Numbered from the stretch's first letter, positions 11,045-31,829 are shown. The stretch: DNA of 64,000 bases from an uncultured Actinomycetota bacterium (GCA_963820715.1 CAWGAU010000004.1:385773-449772); one strand, 5' to 3'. The notes: generated from the sequence alone by a model not told the origin. Numbers and translations are program-made.

Positions 11045-11427
11045 GCCCCGCGCGGGCCGGCCCCCGCCCGCCGCCGGAGCGAGGGCCGGCCCGCGTCCGC
11101 CGCGGCCCTCCTCCGGCGGGTCCGGCCTGCTCATCGGCCCTGCGCTCGCCCCGCCGGTCCGCCCGTTCGCCGCCGTGCGTCCGCGCAACCGCCCCGCGCC
11201 GGCGCCCCGTTGATTGCCTGCTGCACGGGCCTTGTCAAAGCCGCGTCACGGCTCTTACGGTGTGGCCGCGAAAGAAAATGCTCGACTCTGTTTCATTACG
11301 TTGAATTGGCGTGCTGCGGGCCGTCGTCAGCCGGATCGATCGGCACAATTACGCACGCCTCATGGACCGACCTCGTCGCCGGTCCTGTTCTGTTCGGTTC
11401 TCCGACACCGCGAGCAGAGGAACCTCC

Positions 11428-13472: not shown

Positions 13473-13486
13473 CGACCGGTCACATC

Positions 13487-13526
13487 CCGTACGGCGGCGG
13501 CACGTCCACGTGCCGCCGCCGTACGG
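13487..13526. terminator. 19-bp perfect inverted repeat (CCGTACGGCGGCGGCACGT cc ACGTGCCGCCGCCGTACGG), 15 nt after the alpha-galactosidase stop
   Basis: Read directly from the sequence. A GC-rich hairpin without a U-tract is typical of actinomycete intrinsic terminators. Confidence 0.6.
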
Positions 13527-13780
13527 CGTGCTGCCCAGGGCGGCGCCGGCGCCGGTGCGTGCCGGCTCAGCACGGGGCGCCGCGCCGCGGGCCCGCACCG
13601 TACGGGGGTTTCCGGCGGTCGGCCGGGTGATCCGCGCGGGTGTCACGCGGACGGAGTACACGGAGGGGCGCGACCTTCGGCGCCCGCGCCCTCCCGGCAC
13701 CTCCGTACGCCGCTACCCGAGCGGCCGACCGCGCCGTTGACTGGGAGTTCGGCCCCGACCCGGGAGCGCACATGACCAAC

Positions 13781-14613
13781 AGCCGTAAGCCCGAGACCCC
13801 GGCCTGCGACCAGGCAGCAGCCCCCCACGCGTCAGCCCTGCAGTCCCGACCGCCGCCGTCCACCGGTCGTCTTCGACGCGCCGTTCTCCGACCGCTCGGC
13901 CTGGGCGGTGGGCCGCACCTCCGCCTACCCGCCGGACGGCCGCAACCCCGGCGACAACAAGCTCGACCAGATCGGCCCGGCCTCCGCCCCCACCGCCGAC
14001 GGCGTCTTCCGCGCCCGCCGCACCCGGGACGGCCTGTGGCACGCCGACCTGGTGTCCACCGAGTACGCCCCCGGCGGCTTCGAGCTGCTCCCCGGGCGAC
14101 GAGCTGAGCGCGACCTGCCGGGTGGAGGACGTCCGGGGCGCCTGGCCCGCGCTGTGGACCTGGGGGCGCGACACCGACTCGGGCCGCCCGCAGCCCGGGC
14201 ACGGCGAGATCGACGCCTTCGAGTACCACCCGGACAACCCGCGGATGCTGGAGCTGACCAACCACGTCCGCCGCGCCGCCCGCTACGCCGAGGGCGCGGT
14301 CACCCCCGGGCGGCCGTTCGCGCTGCGGGTCGTGCTCGGCGTGGACAGCGTGGTGTGGGAGGTCGACGGCGCGCGGGTCTTCGCCGACGGCCGGGGCGTC
14401 GGCCCGTCCTGGCGCGCCTGGCCGGTGGTCGGCATCAGCGTCTCCGCGGGGGCGTACGGCCATCTGCCGCCGGACGCCGGGGTGCACGAACTGCGCTGGC
14501 AGTGCACGGAGTCTGACGGTCCGCCGCCCGGTCCTCGACCTGCCCCGGCAGCAGGAGCTGACCGCACCAGTGGCCCCGCCGGCCCCAACTCTTCTTTGGT
14601 CCAGACCTATTGA
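13781..14613 (+). CDS. GH16-like (concanavalin-like glycoside hydrolase) protein; frameshifted, ends uncertain
   Basis: EIDAFEY fits the GH16 ExDxxE catalytic motif. Conserved stretches: RTSAYPPDGRNPGDNKLDQIGPASAPTADGVFRARRTRDGLWHADLVSTEYAPGGFEL and GAWPALWTWGRDT...GHGEIDAFEYHPDNP. Confidence 0.5.
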
Positions 14614-14638
14614 CGAGTGGTCGAGACCACTTTACGAT
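14610..14638 (+). promoter_or_regulatory. chitinase promoter: -35 TTGACG (14610-14615), 17-nt spacer, -10 TACGAT (14633-14638); spacer contains a DasR-type dre box AGTGGTCGAGACCACT (14616-14631)
   Basis: The dre consensus is ACTGGTCTAGACCAGT. The core TGGTCGAGACCA matches with one central mismatch. Streptomyces chitinase genes are classic DasR targets. Confidence 0.6.
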
Positions 14639-14754
14639 CCCGACCATCACCGTGCGTGATCCTCCAGCTTCTCCAACTCACCCGGAGCCGGGCTGCCACG
14701 GCCACCCCCATCGGCTCGGTGGCCGCCGTGCCCGCCGCGGGAAGGGAGCACAGC

Positions 14755-15890
14755 ATGATCGGTCGGAGACTACGGGTAGTGGGGGTCGGCCTGACCCTGG
14801 CCGCCCTCGCCCAACTTCCGGTCGCCGCGGCCGTCCACGCCGCGGCCCCCGGCCCACGAGCGGCGGCCGGCCCGGCCCGGCCGCCGCCGCCGTCACCGCG
14901 CGCCGTCCCGCACACGACCGCCGCCGACACCTGCGCGATCAAGCCGCCGCCCCTCGGGCAAGGTGCTCCAGGGCTACTGGGAGAACTGGGACGGCGCCGC
15001 CAACGGCGTGCACCCGCGGCTCGGCTGGATCCCGATCACCGACAGCCGGATCGCCGCAGCACGGCTACAACGTCATCAACGCGGCCTTCCCGGTCATCCA
15101 GTCCGACGGCACCGTGCTGTGGCAGGACGGCATGGACACCGGCGTCAAGGTGGCCACGCCGGCCGAGATGTGCCAGGCCAAGGCGGCCGGCGCGACGATC
15201 CTGATGTCGATCGGCGGCGCGGCGGCCGGCATCGACCTCAGCTCCAGCGACCGTCGCCGACCGCTTCGTGGCGACCATCGTGCCGATCCTGAAGGCGTAC
15301 AACTTCGACGGCATCGACATCGACATCGAGACCGGCCTGATCGGCAGCGGCAGCATCAGCACGCTGTCCACCTCGCAGGCCAACCTGGAGCGCATCATCG
15401 ACGGCGTGCTGGCCCAGATGCCCGCCGAACTTCGGCCTGACCATGGCGCCCGAGACGGCGTACGTCACCGGCGGCAGCATCACCTACGGCTCGATCTGGG
15501 GCGCGTACCTGCCGATCGTCAAGAAGTACGCCGACAACGGCCGGCTGTGGTGGCTGAACATGCAGTACTACAACGGCAGCATGTACGGCTGCTCCGGCGA
15601 CTCGTACGAGGCGGGCACGGTGGCCGGGCTTCACCGCGCAGACCGACTGCCTCAACAAGGGCCTGGTCGTCCAGGGCACCACGATCAAGGTGCCGTACGA
15701 CAAGCAGGTGCCCGGCCTGCCGGCCCAGTCCGGGCGCGGGCGGCGGCTACATGACGCCGACCCTGGTCTCCCAGGCGTGGAACGCACTACGGCAGCGGCG
15801 CTCAAGGGCCTGATGACCTGGTCGCTCAACTGGGACGGCTCGAAGGGCTGGACCTTCGGCGACAACGTGAAGTCGCTGCAGGGCCGCTGA
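14755..15890 (+). CDS. secreted GH18 chitinase; frameshifted
   Basis: Signal peptide MIGRRLRVVGVGLTLAALAQLPVAAAVHA after RBS GGGAAGGGAG. GH18 motifs: GYWENWDG, NVINAAF, ILMSIGG, FDGIDIDIE (DxxDxDxE), WWLNMQYYN, LMTWSLNWD. Confidence 0.85.
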
Positions 15891-15924
15891 CACGGGGTGC
15901 CGTCCCCGTGCCGCCCGACGGGCG

Positions 15925-15981
15925 CCCGCCGACTGCCCTCGGCGGGCGCCTGCCGTGTTTCCCCGGACCGAACCGGGGAAA
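15925..15981. terminator. two consecutive GC-rich hairpins after the chitinase gene
   Basis: GGCGCCCGCCGactgccctCGGCGGGCGCC and TTTCCCCGGaccgaaCCGGGGAAA. Confidence 0.4.
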
Positions 15982-16118
15982 TGGGCGGGCGCCCGGGCGT
16001 CAGGTCCGCGCAAAGATCACGGCACCCGGTGCCAATAATCCGTATCCGACAGGCGCCTTGGCGCCCGTGAAGCCGCACCCTGGGAGTCCCGAACACCGTT
16101 CCGGCCCCAGGAGGGCGC

Positions 16119-17994
16119 ATGTCCGCAGCCGTCACCGAGCAGTCCCCGGCGCCGGAGGCCGCCGAACCTCCCGATACGGGCGCGGCCACCGACCGGCACC
16201 GGCTCACCGCGCTGCAGGGACTGGCCGCGCTCTCGCTGGACGCGATGGCGTCCGTGGCCTACGGGCCGGAGGCGATCGTCCTGGTGCTGGCCGCGGCCGG
16301 CGCGCACGGCCTCGGCTTCACCCTGCCGGTGACGCTGGCCATCGCCGCGCTGCTCGCCGTGCTCGTCGCCTCCTACCGGCAGGTGATCGCGGCGTTCCCG
16401 GACGGCGGCGGCTCCTACGCGGTCGCCAAGACGCCACCTCGGCCGCCGCACCAGCCTGGTGGCGGCGGCCTCGCTGATCCTGGACTACGTGCTCAACGTC
16501 GCGGTGTCCGTCACCGCCGGCGTGGCCGCGCTCACCTCGGCCTTCCCCGGGCTCTACGGCGACCGGGTGTGGCTGTGCCTGGCCGTGCTCGCCCTGGTCA
16601 CCGCGGTGAACCTGCGCGGCATCGTCGACTCCGCGCGCGGCCTTCATGTACCGACCGCCGTGTTCGTCGCGCTCGATCCTCGCGATCATCGTCGTCGGGC
16701 TCTTCCGCGTCCGCCCCCGCCGCCACGGCCGCCGCCGCACGGCCACGCCTCCGGTCGTCGCGGTCAACGCCACCGGCGTCGGCGCGCTGCTGCTGCTCAA
16801 GGCGTTCGCGTCCGGCTGCTCGGCGCTGACCGGCGTGGAGGCGGTGGCCAACGCGGTGCCGTCCTTCCGCGCCCCGCGCCGTGCGCCGGGCCCAGCGCAC
16901 CGAGGTCGCGCTCGGCGGCGCTGCTCGGCGTGATGCTGATCGGCCTGGCGGTGCTCATCGGCCGCTTCCACCTCCGGCCGGTGCGAGGGCGTCGACCGTC
17001 CTCGCCCAGCTCGCGGACGCCTCGCTCGGCCACAACTGGGCCTTCTACGTGGTGCAGTTCGCCACCGTGGTGCTGCTGGCGCCTGGCCGCCAACACCTCC
17101 TTCGGCGGGCTGCCGGTGCTGATGCGGCCTGCTGGCCCGCGACAACTACCTGCCGCACGTGTTCGCCCTCAAGGCCGACCGCCAGGTGCACCGCTACGGC
17201 GTGCTCACGCTCGCCGGCGATCTCCGCGGTGCTGCTGGTCGCCTCCGGCGGCGACACCAACACCCTCGTCCCGCTCTTCGCGATCGGCGTGTTCGTCGGC
17301 TTCACCATCTGCCAGATCGGCATGGTCCGGCACTGGCGCGCGCGAGCGGGTGCCGCGCTGGCGGCGCAAGGCCGCTGCTCAACGGCTTCGGCGCGGTGCT
17401 CACCGGCGTCGCGGCGGTCGTGGTGACCGGCGACGAAGTTCATGGAGGGCGCCTGGCTGATCGTCGTCGCGCTGCCGCTGCTGGTGGCTGGCCTTCGAGG
17501 GCGTGCACCGGGCGTACGGGCGGATCGGCGCAGCGCCTGGGCCTCGGCCGGATGCCCGGAGCCGCCGCACCGCGGACCGCTCGCTGGTCGTCGTGCCCGG
17601 TCGTCGACCCTGTCCCGGCTGACCAGCGAGGCGCTCACCGCCGCCGTCTCGCTCGGCGACGAGGTGCGCGCGGTGACCGTCACCCACCCCGAGGAGGACC
17701 GGCGGCGACCGAGGCGCTGCGCCGCGACTGGGAGCTGTGGCACCCGGGCGTGCCGCTGACCGAGCTGCCCTCCCCGCACCGCTCGCTCGGCCGGCCGCTC
17801 GACCGCGTACGTCCGCGCGCTCGCCGCCGAGCGACCCGGCACCCGGATCACCGTGCTCGATCGCCGAGGTCGAACCCGTGCACGTCTGGCAGCGGCTGCT
17901 GCAGAACCAGCGCGGCGCGGTCGTCGCCCACGCGGTACGCCGCGACACCGACGCCGTCGTGTGCCGGCTGCGGTTCCGCCTCAGGTCCCTGTGA
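16119..17994 (+). CDS. APC-superfamily permease with ~200-aa C-terminal cytoplasmic domain (KimA-like architecture; substrate unknown); several frameshifts
   Basis: RBS AGGAGG. TM core: ALSLDAMASVAYGPEAIVLVLAAAG...AVLVASYRQVIAAFPDGGGSYAVAKT and LVPLFAIGVFVGFTICQIGMVRHWRA. Soluble tail: ATEALRRDWELWHPGVPLTELPSPHRSLGRPL...VVCRLRFRLRSL. Confidence 0.75.
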
Positions 17995-18034
17995 GCCCTT
18001 TCCCGTGGGCCGCGCCGGGTACAGGCGTCAACGG

Positions 18035-18111
18035 CACGTCAAGAGGGCGACCGGCCGCGCCAGGAAAGCGTTAACGCGCTGGCCGCGAAACGGCCGGGTC
18101 GGCTTGCGTAG
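18035..18111 (+). promoter_or_regulatory. conserved leader blocks upstream of kdpD (A CACGTCAA; B CAGGAAAGCGTTAACGCG; C ACGGCCGGGTCGGCTTGCGTAGG)
   Basis: The same three blocks recur in the same order and orientation upstream of the kdpF operon (23566-23648). Confidence 0.4.
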
Positions 18112-18157
18112 GGAGTGATCACCACGGAACACCGGCTCGGCCCCTGGAGACACGTCC

Positions 18158-20716
18158 ATGTCCGACCTCACGGGCCGTCCCGACGGCGCCCGACCGCTGC
18201 GCCCCGGCCCCGGGCCGCCGCGGGCGCCTGAAGGTGTTCCTCGGCGCGGCCCCGGGCGTCGGCAAGACGTACCGGATGCTCGACGAGGGACGGCGCAGGG
18301 CGGAGCGCGGCACCGACGTGGTCGTGGCCTTCGTCGAGTGCCACAACCGGCCGCACACCCTCGCCCGGCTGGACGGCATGGAGATCGTGCCCCGGCTGGA
18401 ACGGGAGTACCGGGGCTCGTACTTCGGCGAGATGGACCTGGAGGCGGTGCTGCTCAGAAGCCCCCGAGGTCGCGCTCGTGGACGAGCTGGCCCACTCCAA
18501 CCCGCCCGGCGGCCGCAACGACAAGCGCTGGCAGGACGTCGAGACGCTGCTCGCCGCCGGCATCGACGTGGTCACCACCGTCAACATCCAGCACCTGGAG
18601 TCCGTCAACGACGTCGTCGAGAAGATCACCGAGGTCCCGCAGCGCGAGACCGTCCCCGACGAGGTGGTCCGCCGCGCCTTCCAGATCGAACTGGTCGACA
18701 TGCCCGCCGAGGCGCTGCGCCGCCGGATGGCGCACGGCAACGTCTACACCGCCGAGAAGGTGGACGCGGCGCTCGCCAACTACTTCCGGATCGGCAACCT
18801 GACCGCGCTGCGGGAGCTGGCGCTGCTGTGGGTGGCCGGGCGGGTCGACGAGGCGCTGCACAAGTACCGCACCGAGCACGGCATCGGCCGGGTGTGGGAG
18901 ACCAAGGAGCGGGTCGTCGTCGGCCTGACCGGCGGCGCCGAGGGCGACACGCTGATCCGCCGCGCGGCCCGCATCGCCGACCGCTCGGCGGGCGGCGACC
19001 TGCTCGCCGTGCACGTGGCGCGCAGCGACGGGCTGGCCGTCGGCGCCTCACCGGCCGCGCTCGCCCGGCAGCGGCAGCTCGTGGAGAGCCTCGGCGGCAG
19101 CTACCACTCGGTGGTCGGCGACGACGTGGCCTCCGCCCTGCTCGACTTCGCCCGCGCCAACAGCGCCACCCAACTGGTGCTGGGCACGAGCCGCCGCAGG
19201 CGGCTGGAGCGGCTGCTGACCGGACGCGGCATCGGCGAGACCACGGTCGGCAGCTCCGAGGACATCGACGTCCACATGGTCACCCACGAACGGGCCGGCG
19301 GCGGCCGGCTGCCGCCGTCGCGCCGCCGCACGCTGACCACCTGGCGGCTGATCGCCGGTCCTGTCGCCGGACTGGTGCTGCCGCTCGCGCTGACCGCCGT
19401 CCTCGCCCACAACCGCGGCAGCCTCAACCTCACCAGCGAGGCGCTGCTCTTCGTGCTCGCGATCGTCGGCGTGGCGTGCTTCGGCGGGGTGGTCTCCGCC
19501 GTCGTCGCGTCCGTGACCGCGTCCTTGCTGCTCAACTACTACTTCATCCCGCCGGTCGGCCAGTTCACCATCGCCGAGCCCAACAACATCCTGGCGCTCG
19601 CGGTGTTCGCGGTCGTCGCCGGCACGGTCGCGGCGGTCGTGGACCGCTCGCTGCGGCTGTCCCGGCGCGCGGCCCGGGCCACCGCCGAGGCCGAGACGCT
19701 CTCGTCGCTGGCCGGGAGCATCGTCCGCGGCGGCGACATCCTGCCCACCCTGCTGGAGCGCGCCCGCGAGACGTTCGGCATGGACAGCGCCGAACTCGCC
19801 CCCGCCCCCACGGGCGACGCCGCCGACGACGACTTCGCGGTACGGGTGCCGACCGGCGACGGCATGGTGCTCGAACTGCGCGGCCGCTCCCTGTCCGCCT
19901 CCGACCAGCGCGTCCTGGCGGCCTTCGCCGCCCACGTCTCCGCCGCCGCGGAACGGGCCAGGCTCGCCGAGGCCGCCGCCGAGATAGAGCCCGTCAAGGC
20001 CGCCGACCGGATGCGCACCGCCCTGCTCGCCGCCGTCAGCCACGACCTGCGCACGCCGCTGGCCGTCGGCTGGGCCGCCGTCAGTTCGCTGCGCAGCCAG
20101 GACGTGTCCTTCTCCGAGGAGGACCGCGAGGAACTGCTCGCCACCGCCGAGGAGTCGCTGGCCCGCCTCAGCCGGCTCGTCGACAACCTCCTCGACATGA
20201 GCAGGCTCCAGGCCGGCGCGCTCGCCCTGCAACTGCGGGCCACCACCCTGGACGAGGTGCTGCCCGCGGCCCTGGAGGCGCTGCCCTCCGACGCGCCCCC
20301 GGTCGACGCGGCCGGATCTGGAGGAGGCGCCCGCCGTACGCGCCGACCCGCCGCTGCTGGAGCGGGTCATCGCCAACCTGCTCAACAACGCGGTCCGGCA
20401 CGCCCCGCCCGGCCGGCCCGTCGTGCTGACCGCCAGCGCGCTGGGGGACCGGGTCGAACTGCGGGTGGTGGACCGCGGCCCCGGGCTGTCCGCGCAGGAC
20501 CGCGAGCGCGCCTTCGAGCCCTTCCAGCGGATGGGCGACAACGACAACAGCACGGGGCTCGGCCTCGGACTCGCCCTGGCCCGCGGGCTGACCGAGGCGA
20601 TGCACGGCACCCTCACGCCTGAGGACACCCCTGGAGGAGGACTGACCATGGTGCTGTCCCTGCCCGCCGCGGTGGACGCGCGGCCGCCCGAACTCTGCGA
20701 GGGGATCGGATCGTGA
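18158..20716 (+). CDS. kdpD: K+-sensing histidine kinase KdpD (KdpD N-domain + USP + TM + HisKA/HATPase); 3 frameshifts
   Basis: KVFLGAAPGVGKTYRMLDEGRRRAERGTDVVV, TVNIQHLESVNDVVEKIT, H-box AVSHDLRTPL, N-box IANLLNNAVRHA, G-box DRGPGL...GLGLGLAL. Confidence 0.9.
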
Positions 20717-21396
20717 CGTGCGTACTGGTCGTGGACGACGACTCCCCGATGCTGCGGGTGATCGGCGCGGGCCTGCGCTCGTACGCCTTCGCGGTGGTCA
20801 CCGCCTGCGACGCCGGCACGGCGCTGGACCTCGCGGCCAAGCGGCGGCCCGACGCGGTGCTGCTCGACCTCGGACTGCCCGACCTCGACGGCCTCGACGT
20901 GCTGCGCTCGCTGCGCGCCTGGACCAGCGTGCCCGTCCTCGTCGTCTCCGGCCGCACCGGCGTCTCCACCCGGGTCGCCGCGCTCGACGCGGGCGCCGAC
21001 GACTACCTCACCAAGCCCTTCGCCCTGGAGGAACTCGCCGCCCGGCTGCGGGCGGTGCTGCGCAGGCCCGCCCTGCTGGAGCCGCCGGAACGGGTGGAGG
21101 TCGGCCCGCTCACCGTGGACCTGGGCACCTACCGGGTCAGCCGTGCGGACCGGGAGGGCGCCGACATCCACCTCACGCCGACCGAGTGGCGGCTGCTGGC
21201 CGTCCTGCTGCGCAACCCCGAGCGGCTGGTCACCGGCCGGGAGCTGCTCACCGAGGTGTGGGGCCGCGAGTACGTCAAACGCACCAACTACCTGCGGATC
21301 TACATGGCCGGCCTGCGGCAGAAGCTGGAGCCCGACCCGTCAGCGCCCCGCCATCTGATCACCGAACCGGGGCTCGGATACCGCTTCCAGCCGTAG
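20713..21396 (+). CDS. kdpE: OmpR-family response regulator KdpE (intact), 4-bp overlap with kdpD
   Basis: [16 protein letters not shown]...[14 protein letters not shown]...[23 protein letters not shown]...[33 protein letters not shown]. Confidence 0.9.
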
Positions 21397-23372
21397 CCCG
21401 CGGCGCCCGCACACGCGCTCAGCCCGCGTGCACCCGCGGCCGCAGCGGCCCGGTCCGGCTCGGCCTCGCGCAGCACCTCGCGGGTGACCGGCGCGACCTC
21501 GCCCTGCCCGAAGAGGAAGAACCGCAGGAAGTTCGCGAACGGGTTGCCCTCGGTCCACTCGAAGTAGATGTGCGGGGTGCAGCCGGTGGTGTCGCGGACG
21601 TGCAGCAGCAGCGCGGCCAGCGCGTTGGGGATGGAGGAGCTCTCCACCGTCAGCACCCGGTAGCGGCCGTGCATCACCTGCCCGCGCACGGTCAGCGCCG
21701 TCTCGAACTCCGACGGGTCCAGCACGGTCACCTCGACGAAGACCAGGTCGTCCTCGGCCGGGATGTCGTTGTCGGTACGGATCTGCCGCACCTTGTCGCG
21801 GTACTCGGCCTCGTCGCGGCGGTCCGGCTCGTTGGCGATGAAGCGCACCTTGCGGCTGGCCACGTCGCGCACGAACCGCTCCGCCATGCCGTCCAGCCGC
21901 ACGTCGGTGACCCGCAGCTCGAAGGCGCGGGCGAGCCGGGACAGCAGGGACACCAGGATGATCCCGGCGATGAAGCAGGCGCCGATCTTCACACCGTCGG
22001 GCCGCTCGAGCGATGTTGACGACCGTGGTGTAGAGGAAGACCACCGCGATGACGCCGAAGCCGATCGCCCAGTTGCGCTGCCGGGCCCGGCGGGCGGAGA
22101 TCGTCACGGCGATGGCCGCGGAGCTCATCAGGACCAGCACACCGGTGGCGTAGGCGCCGCCCTGCTTGTCGACGTTCGCGTCGAAGATCCAGGTGACCAG
22201 GAAGGCCGACCAGGGTGAAGACCAGCACCATCGGGCGCACCGCCCGCGCCCAGTGCGGCGCCATGCCGTAGCGCGGCAGGTAGCGCGGCATCAGGTTGAG
22301 CAGCCCGGCCATCGCGGAGGCGCCGGCGAACCACAGGATGGCGATGGTGGAGAAGTCGTAGACCGTGCCGAAGGCCGAGCCGAGGTACTCGTGCGCGAGG
22401 AAGGCCAGCGCGCGCCCGTTGGCCGGGCCGCCGGTCTGGAAGTCCTGCTTCGGGATGAGCACGGTGGTGATGAAGCTGGTCGCGACGAGGAAGACGCTCA
22501 TGATCAGGGCGGCCGTCGTCAGCAGCTTCTTGGTGTCCCGGATCCGCCCGGCGGGGTTCTCCTCGGTGTCGCCCGGGTCGCCCTGCACGTGCGGCATCAC
22601 CGCGACGCCGGTCTCGAAGCCGGACATGCCCAGCGCCAGCTTCGGGAAGATCACCAGGGACACGCCGATCATCACGAAGACGTTGCCGCGCTCGGCGGTC
22701 AGCGCCGTGCGACCAGTCGGTGACCAGGTGCGGGGCGGACGACCACCTGCCAGAGGCCGTCCACGACCACCACGACGTTCAGCGCCAGGTAGATCGCCGA
22801 CCAGCACCACCGCGACGCCGATGGCCTCCAGGAAGCCCTTGAGGAAGACCGCGCCGAGCAGCGCGACCAGCAGCAGCGTGATCAGCATCTGGTGGCCGTG
22901 CCAGAGCGCTGGCGAAGTGCGGGTTCTCGGTCAGGTGGGTGGAGGCGTCGGCCGCGGACAGGGTGATCGTGATCAGGAAGTCGGTCGCCGCGAAGCCCAG
23001 CAGCGTCAGGACGAAGAGCTTGCCCTTCCAGAAGGACAGCAGCCGCTCCAGCATCGCGATCGAGCCCTCGCCGCGCGGGCTCTCCTCCGCCACCCGCCGG
23101 TAGACCGGCAGCGCCCCGGCCAGCGTCACGATCACCAGCACGACCGTCGCGATCGGGGAGAGCAGTCCGGCGGCCAGGGCCGCGATGCCCGGCTGGTAGC
23201 CGAGGGTGGAGAAGTAGTCGACGCCGGTCAGGCACATCACCCGCCACCAGCGCTGCCCGCGGTGCGCGGGCTCGGCCGGCTTCACCGCCTGTCCCGGCCG
23301 CGGCCGGCCCATGTCCGACAGGCCCTCCAGCAGCCATGCCCGCAGGCGGTTGGTCGGGGCCTCGGCGGTCAC
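21300..23372 (-). CDS. second APC-superfamily permease with C-terminal cytoplasmic domain (paralogous architecture to 16119-17994); frameshifted; 3' end uncertain
   Basis: Start GTG at 23372 after RBS AGGAG ([22 protein letters not shown]...). TM segments: [53 protein letters not shown]. Soluble tail: [42 protein letters not shown]. Confidence 0.7.
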
Positions 23373-23565
23373 ACGTCTGCTCCTGTCCGTGCGGCGGTCT
23401 CTCCGTCCGCGGCGGCGCGCGCTCCGTACCGGCGGCAGGCCGTACGGGCACCCCCGGCAGGGCGGAATCCGGCCATCGCGGCGACGGCGAGGCAAGCGTA
23501 CGCAACCGGCCCGCGACCGGTCGGGGCAGGGGCGCCGCGACACGCGGCCATGTCCGCATCAAGAC

Positions 23566-23648
23566 CACGTCAAAGCCGCCGGTGGCCGCGTCAGGAAGGC
23601 GCTAACACGGACGGCGGTACGGGCACGGCCGGGTTTGTCTTGGTGAGG
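23566..23648 (+). promoter_or_regulatory. conserved leader blocks upstream of the kdpF operon (A CACGTCAA; B CAGGAAGGCGCTAACACG; C ACGGCCGGGTTTGTCTTGGTGAGG)
   Basis: Same blocks as the kdpD leader. Confidence 0.4.
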
Positions 23649-23732
23649 CCGACCTGTGAAGCGTCGGCGCCGGCCGCCCGACCGAGGGCGGGCGGCTTCG
23701 ATCTCCTCTGACCGTCCGGGGTGTGCCTTCCC

Positions 23733-23816
23733 ATGCCAGACCTAGTTTTCGTCGCCGTCACCGTCGTCGTGTTCGCCGTCATCGGCCTGGTGGCCAAGGG
23801 GGTGGAGCGGCTGTGA
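23733..23816 (+). CDS. 27-aa single-TM peptide MPDLVFVAVTVVVFAVIGLVAKGVERL, stop overlapping kdpF start (ctGTGAgc)
   Basis: Found by manual reading; too short for the ORF track. It is hydrophobic. The GTGA start/stop overlap with kdpF suggests translational coupling. No clear Shine-Dalgarno sequence. Confidence 0.35.
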   Translation: MPDLVFVAVTVVVFAVIGLVAKGVERL

Positions 23817-23902
23817 GCGCTGAAAACGTCGTCGGACTCGTCGTTGCCGTGGCCCTGGTCGGATACCTGGTGCTGGCACTGATCCACCCGGAGAAGTTCT
23901 AG
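23813..23902 (+). CDS. kdpF: KdpF subunit (29 aa) VSAENVVGLVVAVALVGYLVLALIHPEKF
   Basis: Matches mycobacterial and actinomycete KdpF (...VGL.IA.AL..YL..AL..PEKF). Its stop overlaps the kdpA GTG start. Confidence 0.7.
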   Translation: MSAENVVGLVVAVALVGYLVLALIHPEKF

Positions 23903-25568
23903 TGAACGACACCCTCGCGGGCTGGCTCCAGATCATCGCCCTGCTGGGCGTGCTGGCGCTGTCCTACCGGCCGCTGGGCGACTACATGGCCCACGTCCTG
24001 ACCTCCCCCAAACACTGGAGCGTCGAGCGCTTCCTCTACCGGCTCGGCGGGGTGGACGGCGAAGCCGACCAGCGCTGGCCGGTCTACCTGCGCAGCGTCC
24101 TCGCCTTCTCCGCCGTGTCCGTGCTCTTCCTCTACGCCTTCCAGCGGCTCCAGAGCCACCTGCTGCTGTCCGTCGGCATGAAGGCGGTGCCGCCGAACAC
24201 GGCGTTCAACACCGCGACTTCCTTCGTCACCAACACCAACTGGCAGTCGTACTCGGGTGAGTCCACGATGGGCCACCTGGTGCAGATGGCCGGGCTCGCG
24301 GTGCAGAACTTCGTGTCGGCCGCCGTCGGCATCGCGGTCGTCGCCGCCCTGATCCGCGGCTTCACCCGCAGGCGCACCGACCGCGTCGGCAACTTCTGGG
24401 TGGACCTCACCCGGATCGTGCTGCGCGTCCTGCTGCCCATGGCCTTCGTCTTCGCGATCATCCTGGTCGCGGGCGGCGCCGTGCAGAACTTCCACGGTGT
24501 GCAGTCGCTCTCCACGATCGCCGGCGACCACCAGAGCCTCACCGGCGGGCCGGTCGCCTCGCAGGAGGCGATCAAGGAACTCGGCACCAACGGCGGCGGC
24601 TTCTACAACGCCAACTCCGCGCACCCCTTCGAGAACCCCAACGCGTTCACCAACATCCTCGAGATCTACATGCTGCTGGTGATCTCCGTCTGCCTGCCGC
24701 GCACCTTCGGCAAGATGGTCGGCGACAAGCGCCAGGGCTACGCGATCCTCGCGGTGATGGGCCTGATCTGGGCCGCGTCGGTGGCGGCCATCACCGTCAG
24801 CGAACTGCACAGCTTCCACAGCGCGGCGGGCCACGCGGCCGGCGGCATGATGGAGGGCAAGGAACAGCGGTTCGGGATCTGGGGTTCGGCGCTGTTCGCC
24901 GTCGTCCACCACGCTGACCTCGACGCGGCGCCGTCAACTCCTTCCACGACTCGTTCTCGCCGCTCGGCGGCGGAACGACGATCTTCAACATGATGCTGGG
25001 CGAGATCGCGCCCGGCGGCACCGGCTCCGGGCTGTACGGCATCCTCATCCTGGCGATCATCACGGTCTTCGTGGCCGGTCTGATGGTCGGCCGCACCCCG
25101 GAGTACCTGGGCAAGAAGCTCGGCGGCCGGGAGATGAAGTTCGCCTCGCTCTACATCCTCACCACCCCGGCGATCGTGCTGGTCGGCGCGGGCGTGGCGA
25201 TGGCGCTGCCAGGTGAGCGGGCGAACATGCTCAACACCGGTGCGCACGGCTTCTCCGAGGTGCTGTACGCCTTCACCTCGGCCGCGAACAACAACGGTTC
25301 CGCGTTCGCCGGTATCACGGTGACCTCCAACTGGTGGAACACGGCGCTGGGCCTGGCGATGCTGCTGGGCCGCTTCCTGCCGATGGTGTTCGTGCTGGCC
25401 CTGGCCGGTTCGCTCGGCAGACAGCAGCCGGTACCCGCCACCGCGGGCACCCTGCCCACCCACCGGCCGCAGTTCGTCGGCCTGCTGACCGCGGTGGTCA
25501 TCATCGTCGTCGGTCTCACGTACTTCCCCGCGCTCGCGCTGGGTCCGCTCGCGGAAGGTCTCCACTGA
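23902..25568 (+). CDS. kdpA: K+-transporting ATPase subunit A; frameshift ~24900-24990
   Basis: [33 protein letters not shown]...[11 protein letters not shown]...[19 protein letters not shown], then second frame ...[29 protein letters not shown]... Confidence 0.9.
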
Positions 25569-27711
25569 TGTCGTCCCTGACCACCCTCGAACCCCCCGTC
25601 ACGCCGGGGGACTCCCCGGAGCCGCCCGAGCGGCACCGGATCTCCGGCGGCATGCTCGACCCGAAGCAGCTCCTCACGTCGCTTCCGGACGCGTGCCGGA
25701 AGCTCGACCCCCGGACGATGGTCAAGAACCCGGTCATGTTCGTGGTCGAGGTCGGCTCGGTGCTGACCACGCTGTCCGCGATCAAGGACCCGAGCGTCTT
25801 CGCCTGGGTGATCACCGCCTGGCTCTGGCTCACCGCGATCTTCGCCAACCTCTCCGAGGCCGTCGCCGAAGGACGCGGCAAGGCCCAGGCCGAGACGCTG
25901 CGCAAGACCAAGACCGACACCCTCGCCCGGCGGCTCGCCGACTGGCGGCCCGGCGACACGCACTCCCGCGAGGAGTCGGTGCCCGCCGCCGAACTGCGGC
26001 TGGCCGACCACGTGGTGGTCGAGGCCGGGCAGGTCATCCCCGGTGACGGCGACGTCGTCGAAGGCGTCGCCTCGGTGGACGAGTCGGCGATCACCGGCGA
26101 GTCGGCCCCCGTCATCCGCGAGTCCGGCGGCGACCGCAGCGCGGTGACCGGCGGCACGAAGGTGCTCTCGGACCGGATCGTCGTGAAGATCACCTCGAAG
26201 CCGGGCGAGACGCTTCATCGACCGGATGATCGCGCTGGTCGAGGGCGCGTCGCCGGCAGAAGACGCCGAACGAGATCGCGCTGAACATCCTGCTGGCGTC
26301 GATGACCATCATCTTCCTGCTGGCCGTCGTGACGCTCCAGCCGTTCGCGATCTACGCGGGCGCCGAGCAGACCATCGTGGTCCTGGTCGCGCTGATGGTC
26401 GCGCTGATACCGACCACGATCGGCGCCCTGCTGTCCGCCATCGGCATCGCGGGCATGGACCGGCTGGTGCAGCGCAACGTCCTGGCCATGTCCGGACGCG
26501 CCGTCGAAGCGGCGGGCGACGTCAACACCCTCCTGCTCGACAAGACCGGCACCATCACCCTCGGCAACCGCCAGGCCGCCGAGTTCCTGACCGCGGACGG
26601 CATCTCCATCGAGGAGTTGGCGGACGCCGCCCAACTGTCGTCGCTCGCCGACGAGACCCCCGAAGGCCGCTCCATCGTGGTGCTCGCCAAGGAGCGCTAC
26701 GGCCTGCGCGGCCGTCCCGAAGGCACCCTGGGGAACGCCGAGTTCGTCCCCTTCACCGCGCAGACCAGGATGAGCGGCGTCGACCTCGTCGAGGACGGCG
26801 ACCACCGCAGCCTGCGCAAGGGCGCCGCCACCGCCGTCATGCAGTGGATACGCGAGAACGGCGGCCACCCCACCGAGGAGGTGGGCCCGATGGTCGACGC
26901 CATCGCGGCCGCCGGCGGCACCCCGCTGGTCGTCGGCGAGGTCGTCCGCCGCGACGGGGACACCACCGCCACCGTGCTCGGCGTGATCAACCTCAAGGAC
27001 GTCGTCAAGGCCGGCATGCGCGACCGGTTCGACGAGCTGCGCCGGATGGGCATCCGCACCGTGATGATCACCGGCGACAACCCGATGACCGCCAAGGCCA
27101 TCGCGGACGAGGCGGGCGTGGACGACTTCCTCGCCGAGGCCACGCCCGAGGACAAGATGGCCCTCATCAAACGCGAGCAGGAGGGCGGGAAGCTGGTCGC
27201 GATGACCGGCGACGGCACCAACGACGCGCCCGCGCTGGCCCAGGCGGACGTCGGCGTGGCCATGAACACCGGCACCTCGGCCGCCAAGGAGGCCGGGAAC
27301 ATGGTGGACCTGGACTCCAACCCCACCAAGCTCATCGAGATCGTGGAGATCGGCAAGCAACTCCTCATCACCCGAGGGGCGCTGACCACCTTCTCCATCG
27401 CCAACGACGTCGCCAAGTACTTCGCGATCATCCCCGCGATGTTCGCCGGCGTCTACCCGGGCCTGCACCACCTCAACATCATGGGTCTGCACAGCCCGAC
27501 CTCGGCCATCACCTCCGCGATCGTCTTCAACGCGCTGATCATCGTCGCGCTGATCCCGCTCGCCCTGCGCGGTGTGCGCTACAAGCCGTCCTCGGCCTCG
27601 GCGCTGCTCAGCCGCAACATCTGGGTGTACGGCCTGGGCGGACTGGTGCTGCCGTTCGTCGGCATCAAACTCATCGACCTCGTCGTGCAGTTCGTCCCCG
27701 GTCTGAACTGA
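25567..27711 (+). CDS. kdpB: K+-transporting P-type ATPase subunit B; two single-base insertions (~26213, ~26253)
   Basis: [47 protein letters not shown]. The conserved [25 protein letters not shown] is recovered only by deleting the C at ~26213 and the C at ~26253. Confidence 0.9.
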
Positions 27712-27727
27712 GAAAGGTCACGTCATC

Positions 27728-28334
27728 GTGCGCAACTACCTGGCGGCCCTGCGAATGCTGCTGATCCTCACCGTCGTGACCGGCGTGGCCTATCCGCTGC
27801 TGGTCACCGGCGTCGCCCAGGCGGCGTTCTCCCACCAGGCCGACGGTTCACCGGTCAAGAAGAACGGCACCACCGTGGGCTCCAGCCTGATCGGCCAGAA
27901 CTTCGACCTGCCGAAGAAGAACCCCGCCGACGCCGACGAGGCGGCCAGGCCCGACCCCGGGTTCTTCCAGCCCCGCCCGTCCGCCGGCGACTACGACCCG
28001 CTCGCCAGCGGTGCGTCCAACCTGGGGCCCAACGACCCCACGCTGGTCAAGACCGTCAAGGAGCGCCGCGCCGCGGTCGCCGCCTTCGACGGGGTCGACC
28101 CGAAGGACGTGCCCGCCGACGCGGTCACCGCCTCCGGCTCCGGCCTCGACCCGGACATCTCCAAGGCGTACGCGGCCGAGCAGGTCGACCGCGTCGCCAA
28201 GGTCCGCGGGCTGAGCGCCGCGACCGTCCGCGGCCCTGGTCTCCGACAACACGCACAGCCGCTCGCTGGGCTTCCTCGGCGAGCCGTACGTGAACGTCGT
28301 CGACCTCAACCTGGCGCTGTCCAGGCTCAAGTGA
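27728..28334 (+). CDS. kdpC: K+-transporting ATPase subunit C; frameshift ~28230
   Basis: MRNYLAALRMLLILTVVTGVAYPLLVTGVAQAAF...ASGASNLGP...SGSGLDPDIS. C-terminus in another frame: ...NTHSRSLGFLGEPYVNVVDLNLALSRLK. Confidence 0.85.
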
Positions 28335-28427
28335 CGACGTTCACATGACCGACCGGCCCGTACCGCCGGCGGTGCGGGCTCCCCCCTGCGCCGCCGGCGG
28401 ACCGGGCCGCGGAAAGGGAGGGCCGGC

Positions 28428-29108
28428 ATGAGCCGAGTGCTCGTCGTCGACGACGAACCGCAGATCGTCCGGGCGCTGGTGATCAACCTGCGCGCCCGGC
28501 GGTACGAGGTCGACGCCGCCCACGACGGGGTCACCGCCCTGCGGATGGCCGCCGACCGGCACCCGGACGTCGTCCTGCTCGACCTCGGCCTGCCCGACAT
28601 GGACGGCGTCGACGTCATCACCGGGCTGCGCGGCTGGACCCGGGTGCCGATCATCGTCCTGTCCGCCCGCCACGCCTCCGACGAGAAGGTCCAGGCGCTC
28701 GACGCGGGCGCCGACGACTACGTCACCAAGCCGTTCGCCATGGACGAACTCCTGGCCCGGATGCGCGCCGCCGTCCGCCGCGCCGACGCGGGCCCCGACC
28801 CCGAGACCTCCACCCTGGAGACCGCGTCCTTCACCGTCGACCTGGCCGCCAAGAAGGTCAACAAGGACGGCACGGACGTCCGCCTCACCCCCACCGAGTG
28901 GCACCTGCTGGAGGTCCTCACCCGTAACGCGGGCCGCCTGATCAGCCAGAAGCAGCTGCTCCAGGACGTGTGGGGCCCCGGCTACGGCACCGAGACCAAC
29001 TACCTGCGGGTGTACATGGCGCAGCTTCGCCGCAAGCTCGAAGCCGACCCCACCCGGCCGCGGCACTTCATCACCGAGCCGGGCATGGGCTACCGGTTCG
29101 AGCCGTGA
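28428..29108 (+). CDS. kdpE: second KdpE-type response regulator (intact), no kinase gene follows it
   Basis: RBS GGAAAGGGAGG. MSRVLVVDDEPQIVRALVINLRARRYEV...NYLRVYMAQLRRKLEADPTRPRHFITEPGMGYRFEP. This is closer to canonical KdpE than the copy at 20713. Confidence 0.9.
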   Translation: MSRVLVVDDEPQIVRALVINLRARRYEVDAAHDGVTALRMAADRHPDVVLLDLGLPDMDGVDVITGLRGWTRVPIIVLSARHASDEKVQALDAGADDYVTKPFAMDELLARMRAAVRRADAGPDPETSTLETASFTVDLAAKKVNKDGTDVRLTPTEWHLLEVLTRNAGRLISQKQLLQDVWGPGYGTETNYLRVYMAQLRRKLEADPTRPRHFITEPGMGYRFEP

Positions 29109-29171: not shown

Positions 29172-29792
29172 TCAGGCGGCCGTCTCCAGGGTGAGCAGCA
29201 CGCGCTTGGCGTCCTCGCCGCCCGCGTAGCGGCCCATCGTGCCGTCGGAGCGGATCACCCGGTGGCAGGGGACGACGACGGGCAGCGGGTTGGTCGCGCA
29301 GGCCGTGCCGACGGCGCGGACCGCGCGGGGGCTGCCGGCGGCGGCGGCCACCTGCGCGTAGCTCTCGGTGCGGCCGTAGCCGATCTCCGGGAGGTGGGCC
29401 AGGACGTCGCGGCGGAAGCCCGTGGACAGCCGCCAGTCCAGCGGCAGTTCGAAGGTCCTGCGGCGCCCGGCGAAGTACTCGTCGAGCTGGCGGCCGGTCT
29501 CGTCCAGCCGGCCGGGCGCGTGCAGCACCCGCGGGCTGACCCGGTCGGCGAGCTGCTGGAGCACGGCGCTGTGGTCCTGCACCGCGAAGGCGACCTTGAC
29601 CAGGCCCTCGTCGGTGGCGGCCAGCAGCAGCGTGCCCACGGGCGTGTCGAGGGTGCGGTAGGCGACGTCGAGCAGGCCCTCGCGCGCGGCGCGCGCCGCC
29701 AGCCGCCCGTGCAGGCGGTCATCGTGGCGGCGTCGTCCTCGGGCAGGCCCGCGAACAGGCGCCCGCTGTCGGGTTCTCCGGATGGCGTTCAT
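29172..29792 (-). CDS. ogt: methylated-DNA-protein-cysteine methyltransferase (MGMT/Ogt), copy 1
   Basis: Internal RBS GGGAGGGAGAGG then ATG (MNAIRRT...). YRTLDTPVGTLLLAATDEGLVKVAF...ESYAQVAAAAGSPRAVRAVGTACATNPLPVVVPCHRVIRSDGTMGRYAGG (PCHR active site). Confidence 0.75.
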   Translation of the reverse strand: MNAIRRTRQRAPVRGPARGRRRHDDRLHGRLAARAAREGLLDVAYRTLDTPVGTLLLAATDEGLVKVAFAVQDHSAVLQQLADRVSPRVLHAPGRLDETGRQLDEYFAGRRRTFELPLDWRLSTGFRRDVLAHLPEIGYGRTESYAQVAAAAGSPRAVRAVGTACATNPLPVVVPCHRVIRSDGTMGRYAGGEDAKRVLLTLETAA

Positions 29793-30321
29793 GGTCGTCC
29801 TCTCCCTCCCGTCCGGCCGCTGCCGGACTCCGCGGCCACCGGTCCGGCGGCCGAGCGGGTAGGTCCGGCGCAGCGTCTTCATGCCGTCGGCCGCGGCCCG
29901 GCGGGCCGCGTCGGTGCTGCCGCCCGTGACGGCGGCGATGTCCTTGTAGGGGAGCCCGGCCAGGTAGTGGTAGGCCACCGCCTGGCGCTGCCGCTCCGGC
30001 AGTTCCTTCAGCGCCCGCCACAGGTCGGGGTCCCAGTCCTCGGGGCGGCCGGTGCGCGAGACCCGCTCCGGCAGTTCGCCGACCGGTGTGGCCCGGCGGG
30101 AGTTGCCGCGGGTCACGTCGATCGCCTTGCGGTGCGCGACCGTCACCAGCCACGCCTCGACGTTGGCGTCCGCCGGGCAGCTCCGGATACGCCCGCAGCG
30201 CCGCGAGGAACGTCTCCGACCAGGCGTCCTCCGCGTCGTGCGGCCCCAGCACGGCCCGTACGACGCGCAGCACCATCGGCCCGTGGTCGGTCACGATCTG
30301 TTCGAACGGCGGCTTGCTCAC
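29793..30321 (-). CDS. ECF (sigma-70 family) sigma factor; frameshift ~30150-30190; reads in frame into ogt with no stop codon
   Basis: Region 2: MSKPPFEQIVTDHGPMVLRVVRAVLGPHDAEDAWSETFLAALRAYPELP. Region 4 in second frame: WRALKELPERQRQAVAYHYLAGLPYKDIAAVTGGSTDAARRAAADGMKTLRRTY. Confidence 0.7.
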
Positions 30322-30399: not shown

Positions 30400-30900
30400 T
30401 CAAAACAGCCGCGCCTCCTTCTCCTCCGCGGGCTCCTCCAGGTCGAGCAGGAACCGCTTGCGGTCCAGGCCGCCCGCGTAGCCGGTCAGGCTGCCGCCGG
30501 CGCCCACCACCCGGTGGCACGCCACGACCAGCGACAGCGGGTTGGCGCCCACCGCGGCGCCCACCGCCTGCGCCATCGACCGGTCGCCCAGATCGCCGGC
30601 CAGCTCGCCGTAGGTGCGGGTCCGCCCGTACGGGATCGCGGCGATCAGGTCCCACACCTGGCGCTGGAAGGCGTTGCCGGCCGGCGCCAGCGGCAGGTCG
30701 AACGTGTGCCGCAGGCCCGCGAAGTACTCCTTGAGCTGCTGCCGGACCGCCTCGAACCCGGTGTCCTCGCGCTCCCCGAACTCCTCGGGCGAGGGCCGGC
30801 CGCGGTGCCGGTGCGCGAAGTACAGGCCGGTCAGCGCCCCGTCCTCGGCGACCACCAGCAGATCCCCGAGGGGGGAGTCGACCACCGTGTGCGTCCTCAT
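30400..30900 (-). CDS. ogt: methylated-DNA-protein-cysteine methyltransferase (MGMT/Ogt), copy 2 (intact)
   Basis: MRTHTVVDSPLGDLLVVAEDGALTGLYFA...RTRTYGELAGDLGDRSMAQAVGAAVGANPLSLVVACHRVVGAGGSLTGYAGGLDRKRFLLDLE. Confidence 0.8.
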   Translation of the reverse strand: MRTHTVVDSPLGDLLVVAEDGALTGLYFAHRHRGRPSPEEFGEREDTGFEAVRQQLKEYFAGLRHTFDLPLAPAGNAFQRQVWDLIAAIPYGRTRTYGELAGDLGDRSMAQAVGAAVGANPLSLVVACHRVVGAGGSLTGYAGGLDRKRFLLDLEEPAEEKEARLF

Positions 30901-31022
30901 CAGCGTGCTCCCTTCGCCTCCGGCGGCCCCGTGCGGACCGCCGCCGACACCCCGTAGACGCCGGGCGGCCCGGAACGTGAGATCCGGGCCGCGAACGGTC
31001 CCCGGCCGGAGGAGCACGCGGC

Positions 31023-31829
31023 TCAGGCGGCGGCGGGCCGGAGGGCCACGCTCGCCTCGGAGGTGTGCACGAGGAAGGTCAGCGACTCCTGGAAGTAGAG
31101 CCGCACGCTGGTCGCGTCGTGGCCGAGGTAGCCGATGGACACGTCCTGGCCCAGCCGCAGTTCGAAGTCGCCGCCGCGGGTGGCCAGCAGGAACGCCCCG
31201 TCGATCGCGGGCGCCCACACGATGTCCCCGTCCAGCAGCCGGGCCAGGTGCTGGTGGATCGGGTAGCCGTGGTCGGAGGTCTCGCTGACCGCGGTGTACG
31301 CGTCCGCGCTGAGCGCGAGGGTGTACGCGCCGTCCACCCCGGCCAGCCGCAGCGCCGTGACGGCCTGGCTGACGGCGTCGGGATAGGCCCGGACGTCGGC
31401 GGGCAGCGTCAGCCCCGGGTTGGTGGAGGCGGCCCTGATACCGGTGATGCCCGCGGCCGGGTAGCCCTCGAAGACCGCCCGGTCCTCGGCGAAGGCGAGC
31501 TGCTTGGCGGCGTCCTTGACCGGCTGCCAGTCCGCGTCCTGCGCGCCGCGCTCCACGTCGTCGACCTGGCCGCGGTCCACGGTGAAGGGCACCCGCAGCT
31601 CCACCACGGGCTGGGAGCGGCGGGTCCTGGCGATCACCCCGTCGGCCGGCGCCGCCACGTCGTCCAGGTGCCCGGTCGGCACCGCGGACAGCTCGGCGCC
31701 GGCCGGCTCGGGTACGTCCACGATGCGGCGGGCGGCGACGTTGCGCGCGAAGGTGCGGCGCGCCTCGGCCTCCAGGTCGGCCCAGGCCGCGTCGGAGACG
31801 GGCGCCAGATCACGGTGCAGATTGTTCAC
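31023..31829 (-). CDS. family-1 encapsulin nanocompartment shell protein (intact)
   Basis: VNNLHRDLAPVSDAAWADLEAEARRTFARNVAARRIVDV...GYLGHDATSVRLYFQESLTFLV matches the linocin-M18/encapsulin fold family. GTG start overlaps the DyP stop (GTGA) after RBS AGGAG. Confidence 0.9.
   Translation of the reverse strand: MNNLHRDLAPVSDAAWADLEAEARRTFARNVAARRIVDVPEPAGAELSAVPTGHLDDVAAPADGVIARTRRSQPVVELRVPFTVDRGQVDDVERGAQDADWQPVKDAAKQLAFAEDRAVFEGYPAAGITGIRAASTNPGLTLPADVRAYPDAVSQAVTALRLAGVDGAYTLALSADAYTAVSETSDHGYPIHQHLARLLDGDIVWAPAIDGAFLLATRGGDFELRLGQDVSIGYLGHDATSVRLYFQESLTFLVHTSEASVALRPAAA

Follow-up and report, generated by a model that had tools for sequence, protein, structure and literature searches.

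A Kdp potassium-uptake cluster with two predicted KdpE lineages, one KdpD and two flanking permeases in an uncultured actinomycete

Main

The kdp genes and neighbouring permease genes of a 64,000-nucleotide (nt) stretch from an uncultured Actinomycetota bacterium (GCA_963820715.1, CAWGAU010000004.1:385773-449772; hereafter the window, G+C 74%) form a K+-uptake cluster that is real but fairly ordinary. Its pump, sensor, regulators and one permease, P1, are members of known families. What is new lies in the detail: two KdpE lineages around one KdpD, a duplicated upstream module, a 27-amino-acid (aa) open reading frame (ORF) coupled to kdpF, and the candidacy of a second permease, P2, as a K+ transporter. 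We think it probable that the cluster works as a K+-acquisition island in which two KdpE-activated units (kdpD-kdpE1 and 27-aa ORF-kdpFABC-kdpE2) operate under one KdpD, flanked by the K+-importing permeases P1 and P2.

Relatives were sampled as 80 kdpA-centred loci from species-representative genomes, and every island gene was mapped onto them; numbers such as L001 label the relatives' kdp or P2 loci. The closest kdpA is that of L001, a soil metagenome-assembled genome (CAVWOS010000010.1), at about 90-92.4% amino-acid identity, with Actinacidiphila species next (84-89%); the host is therefore an Actinacidiphila-like bacterium of the family Streptomycetaceae. Exact-sequence look-ups of KdpE1 and KdpE2 in public assemblies returned no record, so the collection searched does not contain the source genome. 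The gene order P1-kdpD-kdpE1-P2-27-aa ORF-kdpFABC-kdpE2 and the strands are those given by an earlier, sequence-only reading of this DNA, and each gene identity has been checked (Table 1).

Results

A common module ahead of kdpD and of the pump genes

An alignment of the DNA ahead of the 27-aa ORF in 11 genomes brought out a 49-bp module, built of two RTCAAR direct repeats whose starts lie 11 bp apart, about 15 nt, and then GYCAGGAANGCGYTAAC. Between the module and the ATG of the 27-aa ORF lie roughly 125 nt of variable leader and a conserved CCGGGGTG. Pattern searches of the window returned three matches to the direct repeat (0.05 expected by chance) and two perfect matches to the second element (0.11 expected). 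The two elements combine at only two places within the 64 kb, before kdpD and before the 27-aa ORF and kdpF (modules 1 and 2, Table 1), which are presumably the shared leader that had already been remarked on. Elsewhere, the composite pattern lies upstream of kdpF in 16 loci; it also precedes the upstream kdpD in L001, L002 and L005 and the divergent E1-type kdpE in L009. A spacing of 11 bp, one helical turn, is typical of direct repeats bound by OmpR/PhoB-family regulators, and we infer that the repeats are a candidate KdpE box. The presence of the same module ahead of kdpD and of the 27-aa ORF and kdpF suggests that kdpD-kdpE1 and the genes from the 27-aa ORF to kdpE2 are two KdpE-controlled transcription units.

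The third copy of the direct repeat (11234-11250, upstream of an alpha-galactosidase gene) is imperfect (GTCAAAGCCGCGTCACG) and without the second half of the module; it was regarded as probably a chance match. A DNA repeat search of the window recovered only the paralogy of kdpE1 and kdpE2 and missed the short module. A scan for sigma-70 consensus promoters was negative, as would be expected of an actinomycete with high GC, and terminator-like matches were at chance level.

Two KdpE lineages and a single KdpD

KdpE1 and KdpE2 are 54% identical. Both genes are uninterrupted and of KdpE type, as the sequence-only reading had it: the KdpE model NF007820 is the top NCBIfam match of each (KdpE2 252.9 bits, KdpE1 233.5 bits), with the runner-up family, MtrA, 55-60 bits lower. 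Each protein keeps the phospho-acceptor Asp of the receiver, the conserved DD, T/S and K residues and the TKPF motif, and the two recognition helices are nearly identical (that of KdpE2 reads TNYLRVYMAQLRRKLE). In a neighbour-joining tree of KdpE proteins, kdpE2 groups with the kdpC-adjacent kdpE of L001 (94% identical), L004 and L005 (81-83%); its orthologue directly follows kdpC in all three and is the sole kdpE in L001. kdpE1 falls with the divergent kdpE genes of L009, L018, L022 and L027 (72-75% identical), Actinacidiphila genomes in which this clade provides the only local kdpE. Orthologues of both genes are thus found linked to kdp in other genomes, and on this tree kdpE2 is the lineage's ordinary kdpE and kdpE1 belongs to a second, less common KdpE lineage. 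Neither the label of orphan once attached to kdpE2 nor the proposed duplication of a regulatory pair with loss of one kdpD fits these results: kdpE2 is orthologous to the sole kdpE of the nearest relatives, which likewise have kdpD ahead of the pump genes, and the locus retains two separate KdpE lineages around one KdpD.

The GTG start of kdpE1 overlaps the TGA stop of kdpD (GTGA). From the 3' half of P1 up to and including kdpE2, L001 and the window are collinear, except that L001 lacks window positions 20757-21399; at its kdpD stop L001 retains the overlapping GTGA and some 48 bp from the 5' end of kdpE1, reading VNGALPVDPDCPVLRR, and then passes directly into the P2 3' end. It follows from this vestige that kdpE1 was deleted in L001, the closest genome, and that the order kdpD-kdpE1 / P2 / kdpFABC-kdpE2 is older than the split between the window and L001 and no artefact of assembly. 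Helix 1 of the dimerization and histidine phosphotransfer (DHp) domain of KdpD shows only conservative differences between kinases of E1-type and E2-type regulators. This similarity, taken with the near-identical recognition helices, makes it plausible that a single KdpD acts on both KdpE1 and KdpE2, and that both act at the same boxes.

In the mechanism that we propose, low K+ would lead KdpD to phosphorylate KdpE, which would bind the direct repeats. Unit 1 (kdpD-kdpE1) and unit 2 (27-aa ORF, kdpF, kdpA, kdpB, kdpC and kdpE2) each stand behind the same module, and phosphorylated KdpE would activate both, giving positive feedback on sensor, regulators and pump. The single KdpD would probably phosphorylate both KdpE1 and KdpE2, and both would probably bind at the same boxes; kdpE2 would be the standard partner and kdpE1 a dispensable second lineage. 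P1 and P2 would be K+ importers driven by the proton motive force for milder K+ limitation, and module 2 may influence P2 as well, since it lies in the intergenic region from which P2 and kdpF diverge.

The alternative that survives best would make kdpE1 a redundant leftover of an older kdpD-kdpE pair heading for deletion, with kdpD...kdpFABC-kdpE2 as the working circuit. L001 has indeed lost all but the vestige while keeping kdpD, P2, kdpFABC and kdpE2, and L005 has kdpD-kdpFABC-kdpE2 without kdpE1. Yet the window's kdpE1 is intact, with third-position GC as high as that of its neighbours; every catalytic residue of the receiver, the recognition helix and the stop/start overlap with kdpD are kept, and its clade supplies the only local kdpE of four other genomes. 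We regard simple redundancy as unlikely, if a serious contender.

Gene order among relatives

The order of kdp genes is very plastic, with at least four arrangements across the 80 loci: kdpFABC-kdpD-kdpE (for example, L010, L015, L064 and L072); kdpFABC-kdpE, at times followed by kdpD (for example, L004, L074 and Streptomyces scabiei L089); kdpD-kdpFABC-kdpE (L001 and L005, the window's closest relatives); and a divergent kdpE upstream of kdpFABC-kdpD (L009, L018, L022 and L027). To call kdpFABC-kdpD-kdpE the canonical actinomycete order, against which the island had been judged atypical, was too simple, and with kdp synteny so plastic in Streptomycetaceae the rearranged order by itself is unsurprising.

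Several relatives carry two or three kdp operons, among them Actinacidiphila acidipaludis (L009 and L067), Streptomyces polygonati (L031 and L058) and Streptomyces chiangmaiensis (L032, three operons within 21 kb); paralogous kdp loci are common in Streptomycetaceae, which makes orthology calls harder. In many Streptomyces genomes in which no kdpE was found within 10 kb, a KdpD-like protein (about 50% identical over a matched stretch of about 2.1 kb) is encoded directly upstream of kdpFABC, for example at about 7100-9260 in L036, L041, L047, L048 and L050. Such proteins may be divergent or non-canonical K+ sensors.

P1, a KimA-family permease

Raw ORF fragments of P1 and P2 were too short to give anything useful from Pfam or NCBIfam, and intact orthologues from relatives were used in their place. 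Frameshift-aware alignment of P1 to its intact L022 orthologue gave 84.6% identity over 619 of 619 residues with no stops. That orthologue matches Pfam AA_permease_2 and, at E 5.5e-116, Bacillus subtilis KimA (YdaO; PDB 6s3k, see also 8b70), a K+/H+ symporter of the KUP family, with residues 26-599 aligned to 18-588 and the cytoplasmic domain included. On this homology P1 is a KimA-family protein over its full length. Roles in K+ binding, gating and proton coupling have been assigned in KimA to D36, Y43, T121, Y377 and E233 (PMC6994465). The corrected P1 conserves D36, Y43, D117, S125, T230 and E233 and differs from KimA, as do its closest relatives, in having N at T121 and F at Y377; among 11 aligned KimA-family sequences, N stands at position 121 in 4 and F at position 377 in 7. 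With these two substitutions, the P1 subgroup may be of low affinity or have a modified ion site.

Of the 80 loci, 11 carry KimA-family genes within 10 kb of kdpA, among them tandem pairs in Kitasatospora (L064 and L066). An Rfam search of the window found no family at gathering thresholds, and the two sub-threshold matches in 15.4-29.4 kb at E ≤ 1 were judged to be chance; on this result a ydaO/cyclic di-AMP riboswitch before P1, P2 or kdpF was rejected. L001 lacks about 3.5 kb present here (13472-16978 against L001 3724-3824), comprising two genes of unknown or GH18-like function (about 2.6 kb) and the 5' half of P1, and keeps a truncated KimA remnant (residues 288-581).

P2, a candidate K+ transporter family

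P2 was studied through P0001, its orthologue from L001, which had no match in Pfam, NCBIfam or PDB sequences; a profile of the P2 family likewise matched no PDB sequence. The protein is 82-88% identical across Streptomyces, where its source names are 'amino acid transporter' or 'APC family permease', and the family numbers 4,142 representatives at 50% identity (E ≤ 0.001). A confident AlphaFold2 model made from a 30-sequence alignment (predicted local distance difference test, pLDDT, 85.6; predicted template modelling score, pTM, 0.80) has an all-helical membrane core at about residues 44-483 and, C-terminal to it, an alpha/beta tail some 170 residues long. The predicted fold is of LeuT/APC type and the nearest structure is KimA, with which the model shares a core of 12 transmembrane (TM) helices and a soluble tail. 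Comparing KimA-family and P2-family alignments with hhalign gave 98% probability (E 1.7e-13, 372 columns, about 17% identity); P2 itself is about 15% identical to KimA.

The same alignment equates KimA D36, Y43, D117, T121, S125 and Y377 with P2 D54, Y61, D133, T137, S141 and Y408, which are conserved in the P2 family in 30/30, 29/30, 22/30, 29/30, 29/30 and 29/30 sequences, respectively; five of the KimA positions (D36, Y43, T121, S125 and Y377) thus have kept equivalents. At the KimA E233 column P2 has G or A, and an invariant E254 lies in the same TM6 break, where the alignment is of low confidence. Model and profile together suggest that P2 is a sister family of KimA and a remote homologue of P1. 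The idea that both flanking permeases are of KimA type holds up for P1 and reaches P2 only by profile-profile comparison and the model, and to describe the two as paralogous was an overstatement: BLASTP aligns them at 27% identity over about 200 residues, and the link otherwise is that same profile match.

Seven of the 80 loci (L001, L008, L017, L024, L026, L045 and L063) have a P2-type gene within 10 kb of kdpA, and L021 has a partial match. Four of four further Streptomycetaceae P2 proteins that we looked up have kdp genes adjacent or within two genes. The arrangements vary: P2 is divergent from kdpFABC in L082 (in the sister genomes L081 and L083 a lone kdpC remnant stands beside P2), from a unit of kdpD, kdpA and kdpB in Streptomyces hygroscopicus L088, and from a unit of a 53-aa ORF, kdpFABC, kdpE and kdpD in S. 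scabiei L089; in Actinacidiphila paucisporea L090 it lies two genes away from kdpC. Persistence of the linkage through several arrangements argues for functional coupling, and for selection rather than inherited synteny.

P2 could instead transport amino acids or another organic solute, as its NCBI names imply, its adjacency to kdp being synteny without common function. That reading has the annotation on its side; against it, no amino-acid-permease model of Pfam or NCBIfam detects P2, the Asp of the TM1 break that corresponds to KimA D36 is invariant, counterparts of Y43, T121 and Y377 stand in 29-30 of 30 sequences, and kdp adjacency recurs in different arrangements in both Streptomyces and Actinacidiphila. 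We find it rather improbable. P2 may belong to the TCDB family PAAP ('Putative Amino Acid Permease', 2.A.120), a group of similarly sized, uncharacterised APC-superfamily proteins from actinobacteria; a literature search on PAAP yielded passing mentions only and nothing usable.

The 27-aa ORF

A motif search placed the 27-aa peptide ahead of kdpF in roughly half of the 80 loci, in Actinacidiphila, Streptomyces, Kitasatospora, Streptacidiphilus and Peterkaempfera. The product had no match in Pfam or NCBIfam, and a literature search on it gave nothing usable; the counterpart in S. scabiei L089 is annotated as a gene of 53 aa. The peptide could act as a leader or as an additional micro-subunit of Kdp. 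As a tentative proposal, possible but short of probable, P2 would stand for a large, unnamed group of KimA-like transporters of cations, most likely K+, that keeps the KimA K+ site but relies on another invariant carboxylate, E254, is a fixed partner of Kdp in Streptomycetaceae and maybe shares a KdpE-controlled divergent promoter, and the 27-aa ORF would encode a fifth, lineage-specific Kdp micro-subunit.

Frameshifts and the integrity of the island

Nearly every long gene switches frame in a plot of third-position GC. A purpose-written frameshift-aware protein-to-DNA aligner, with intact orthologues as references, counted 22 frameshifts in P1, 2 in kdpD, 9 in the P2 alignment (at least 6 within the gene and 3 at or just beyond its ends), 2 each in kdpA and kdpB and 1 in kdpC. 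Of these 38, 37 are insertions of one or two bases. Once frame-corrected, the island genes have no in-frame stops and a third-position GC of 0.95-1.0, and their products are full length and 83-92% identical to orthologues; corrected kdpD, for instance, is free of stops and 87.5% identical to the intact KdpD of L001 (its frameshifts lie near 18462 and 20320, and an extra frame change near 18200 was judged by eye in the raw sequence). The alpha-galactosidase gene at 11.3-13.4 kb, unrelated to the island, has 13 further +1 insertions and again no stops. Because the lesions are one-sided insertions without stops, codon bias and identity to orthologues are intact, and the same pattern affects an unrelated gene, the frameshifts read as errors of an insertion-rich, unpolished assembly, and we take the island genes to be intact.

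That kdp, kimA and P2 are instead real, inactivated pseudogenes is very improbable: island genes longer than about 600 bp are interrupted, but decay would leave mixed insertions and deletions, stops and relaxed codon bias, and there is no multi-base deletion among the lesions. Least credible of all, the double kdpE might be an assembly chimera of two kdp loci, which an error-rich assembly and the multiple kdp operons of relatives (L009/L067, L031/L058 and L032) would allow, but L001 is collinear and its kdpE1 5' vestige sits exactly at the kdpD stop, marking the kdpD-kdpE1-P2 junctions as ancestral.

Insertions occur throughout the window, so any ORF-based reading of it requires frameshift-tolerant methods. 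The stretches affected include 5.4-6.1 kb, 11.3-18 kb and 21.4-28.3 kb, and frameshift density is very uneven, from about 1 per 85 bp (P1) to about 1 per 1.3 kb (kdpD); long unbroken ORFs stand at 30-40 kb and 53-60 kb.

Layout and flanks

Genes for all four subunits of the KdpFABC complex are present and in order, successive genes overlapping or nearly abutting (Table 1). Upstream of the island are the alpha-galactosidase gene and a GH18-like gene. Downstream, no kinase follows kdpE2, in agreement with the sequence-only reading: the next gene (29172-30146, (-)) encodes a sigma-70 region 4 helix-turn-helix fused to an Ada/Ogt-type O6-methylguanine methyltransferase. These flanking genes are unrelated, so the island is bounded where it had been placed. 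A second Ada/Ogt-type methyltransferase gene lies nearby (30400-31218, (-)).

Table 1. Features of the kdp island, in window coordinates
Feature	Position	Strand	Details
P1, predicted KimA-family K+/H+ symporter gene	16119-17994	+	22 inserted-base frameshifts; corrected product 619 aa
Module 1, operator/promoter-like	18027-18075	+	GTCAACggcacGTCAAG, 15 nt, GCCAGGAAAGCGTTAAC; between P1 stop and kdpD start
kdpD, sensor histidine kinase	18158-20716	+	Pfam KdpD, Usp, DUF4118, HisKA and HATPase_c on fragments
kdpE1, OmpR/PhoB-type response regulator, 227 aa, intact	20713-21396	+	Pfam Response_reg and Trans_reg_C
P2, unnamed, predicted KimA-like APC-fold transporter, about 650 aa, C-terminal soluble domain	21419-23372	-	
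Module 2, operator/promoter-like	23558-23606	+	ATCAAGaccacGTCAAA, 15 nt, GTCAGGAAGGCGCTAAC; P2/kdpF divergent intergenic region
27-aa hydrophobic ORF, MPDLVFVAVTVVVFAVIGLVAKGVERL	23733-23816	+	Stop overlaps kdpF start
kdpF, 29 aa	23813-23902	+	Pfam Potass_KdpF PF09604, E 5.1e-10
kdpA	23902-25568	+	Pfam KdpA on both fragments; 92.4% identity to L001 KdpA; inserted bases near 24907 and 24929
kdpB, P-type ATPase subunit	25565-27711	+	Pfam E1-E2_ATPase and Hydrolase; 92.4% identity to L001 KdpB; insertions near 26216 and 26256
kdpC	27728-28348	+	Pfam KdpC, E 2.1e-55; 83% identity to L001 KdpC; insertion near 28235
kdpE2, response regulator, 226 aa, intact	28428-29108	+	Pfam Response_reg and Trans_reg_C; 79 nt past kdpC

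Discussion

The island shares with known Kdp systems the F, A, B and C subunits, a multi-domain KdpD, an OmpR-type KdpE and a direct-repeat site upstream of kdpF. It differs from them in having the sensor upstream of the pump, two KdpE lineages, of which the first is coupled to kdpD and the second follows kdpC, an operator-like module duplicated before kdpD and a conserved extra 27-aa ORF coupled to kdpF. In Mycobacterium tuberculosis kdpDE is divergent, an order that the island does not have; nor does it follow the Escherichia coli order kdpFABCDE (PMC10117811). According to that 2023 review, neither a KdpDE system nor a KimA-like protein of Streptomyces has been characterised; it lists two KimA-like proteins of Streptomyces venezuelae (Vnz_27465 and Vnz_15480), of the same family as P1 and like it uncharacterised. 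The part of the review consulted does not discuss kdp linkage of KimA-type or P2-type genes, and its table of putative S. venezuelae K+ transporters, to the same extent, shows no P2-type protein.

An integrated K+ uptake regulon, as the sequence-only reading envisaged, is consistent with the recurrent kdp linkage of both permease types and with the module common to kdpD and kdpF. Several observations weigh against the two-unit island that we favour. The module was not found ahead of P1, and the label of KdpE box draws solely on the position, spacing and conservation of the repeats. Both KdpE copies score under the NCBIfam KdpE equivalog cut-off (325 bits), in a model made of enterobacterial sequences. 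In P1, KimA T121 is replaced by N and Y377 by F; when Y377 of the B. subtilis protein was mutated (Y377A), the apparent KS rose about 100-fold, from 0.09 to 11 mM. P2 has no Glu at the hhalign equivalent of the proton-coupling E233, the invariant E254 of the same TM6 region notwithstanding, and a distant member of its family, P0130, has no kdp neighbours, so the linkage of P2 with kdp may be specific to Streptomycetaceae. Finally, there is no experiment on any Streptomyces KdpDE, KimA-like protein or P2 (PMC10117811).

K+ homeostasis in Streptomyces is almost unstudied by experiment, and the module described here is a candidate KdpE operator for the Streptomycetaceae. One KdpD accompanied by two KdpE lineages, with a sister genome that has lost one of them, offers a natural case for the study of partner specificity and regulator turnover. 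The best lead is P2: a very widespread family that goes by the label 'amino acid transporter', and whose predicted structure, key residues and gene neighbourhood point to K+ uptake.

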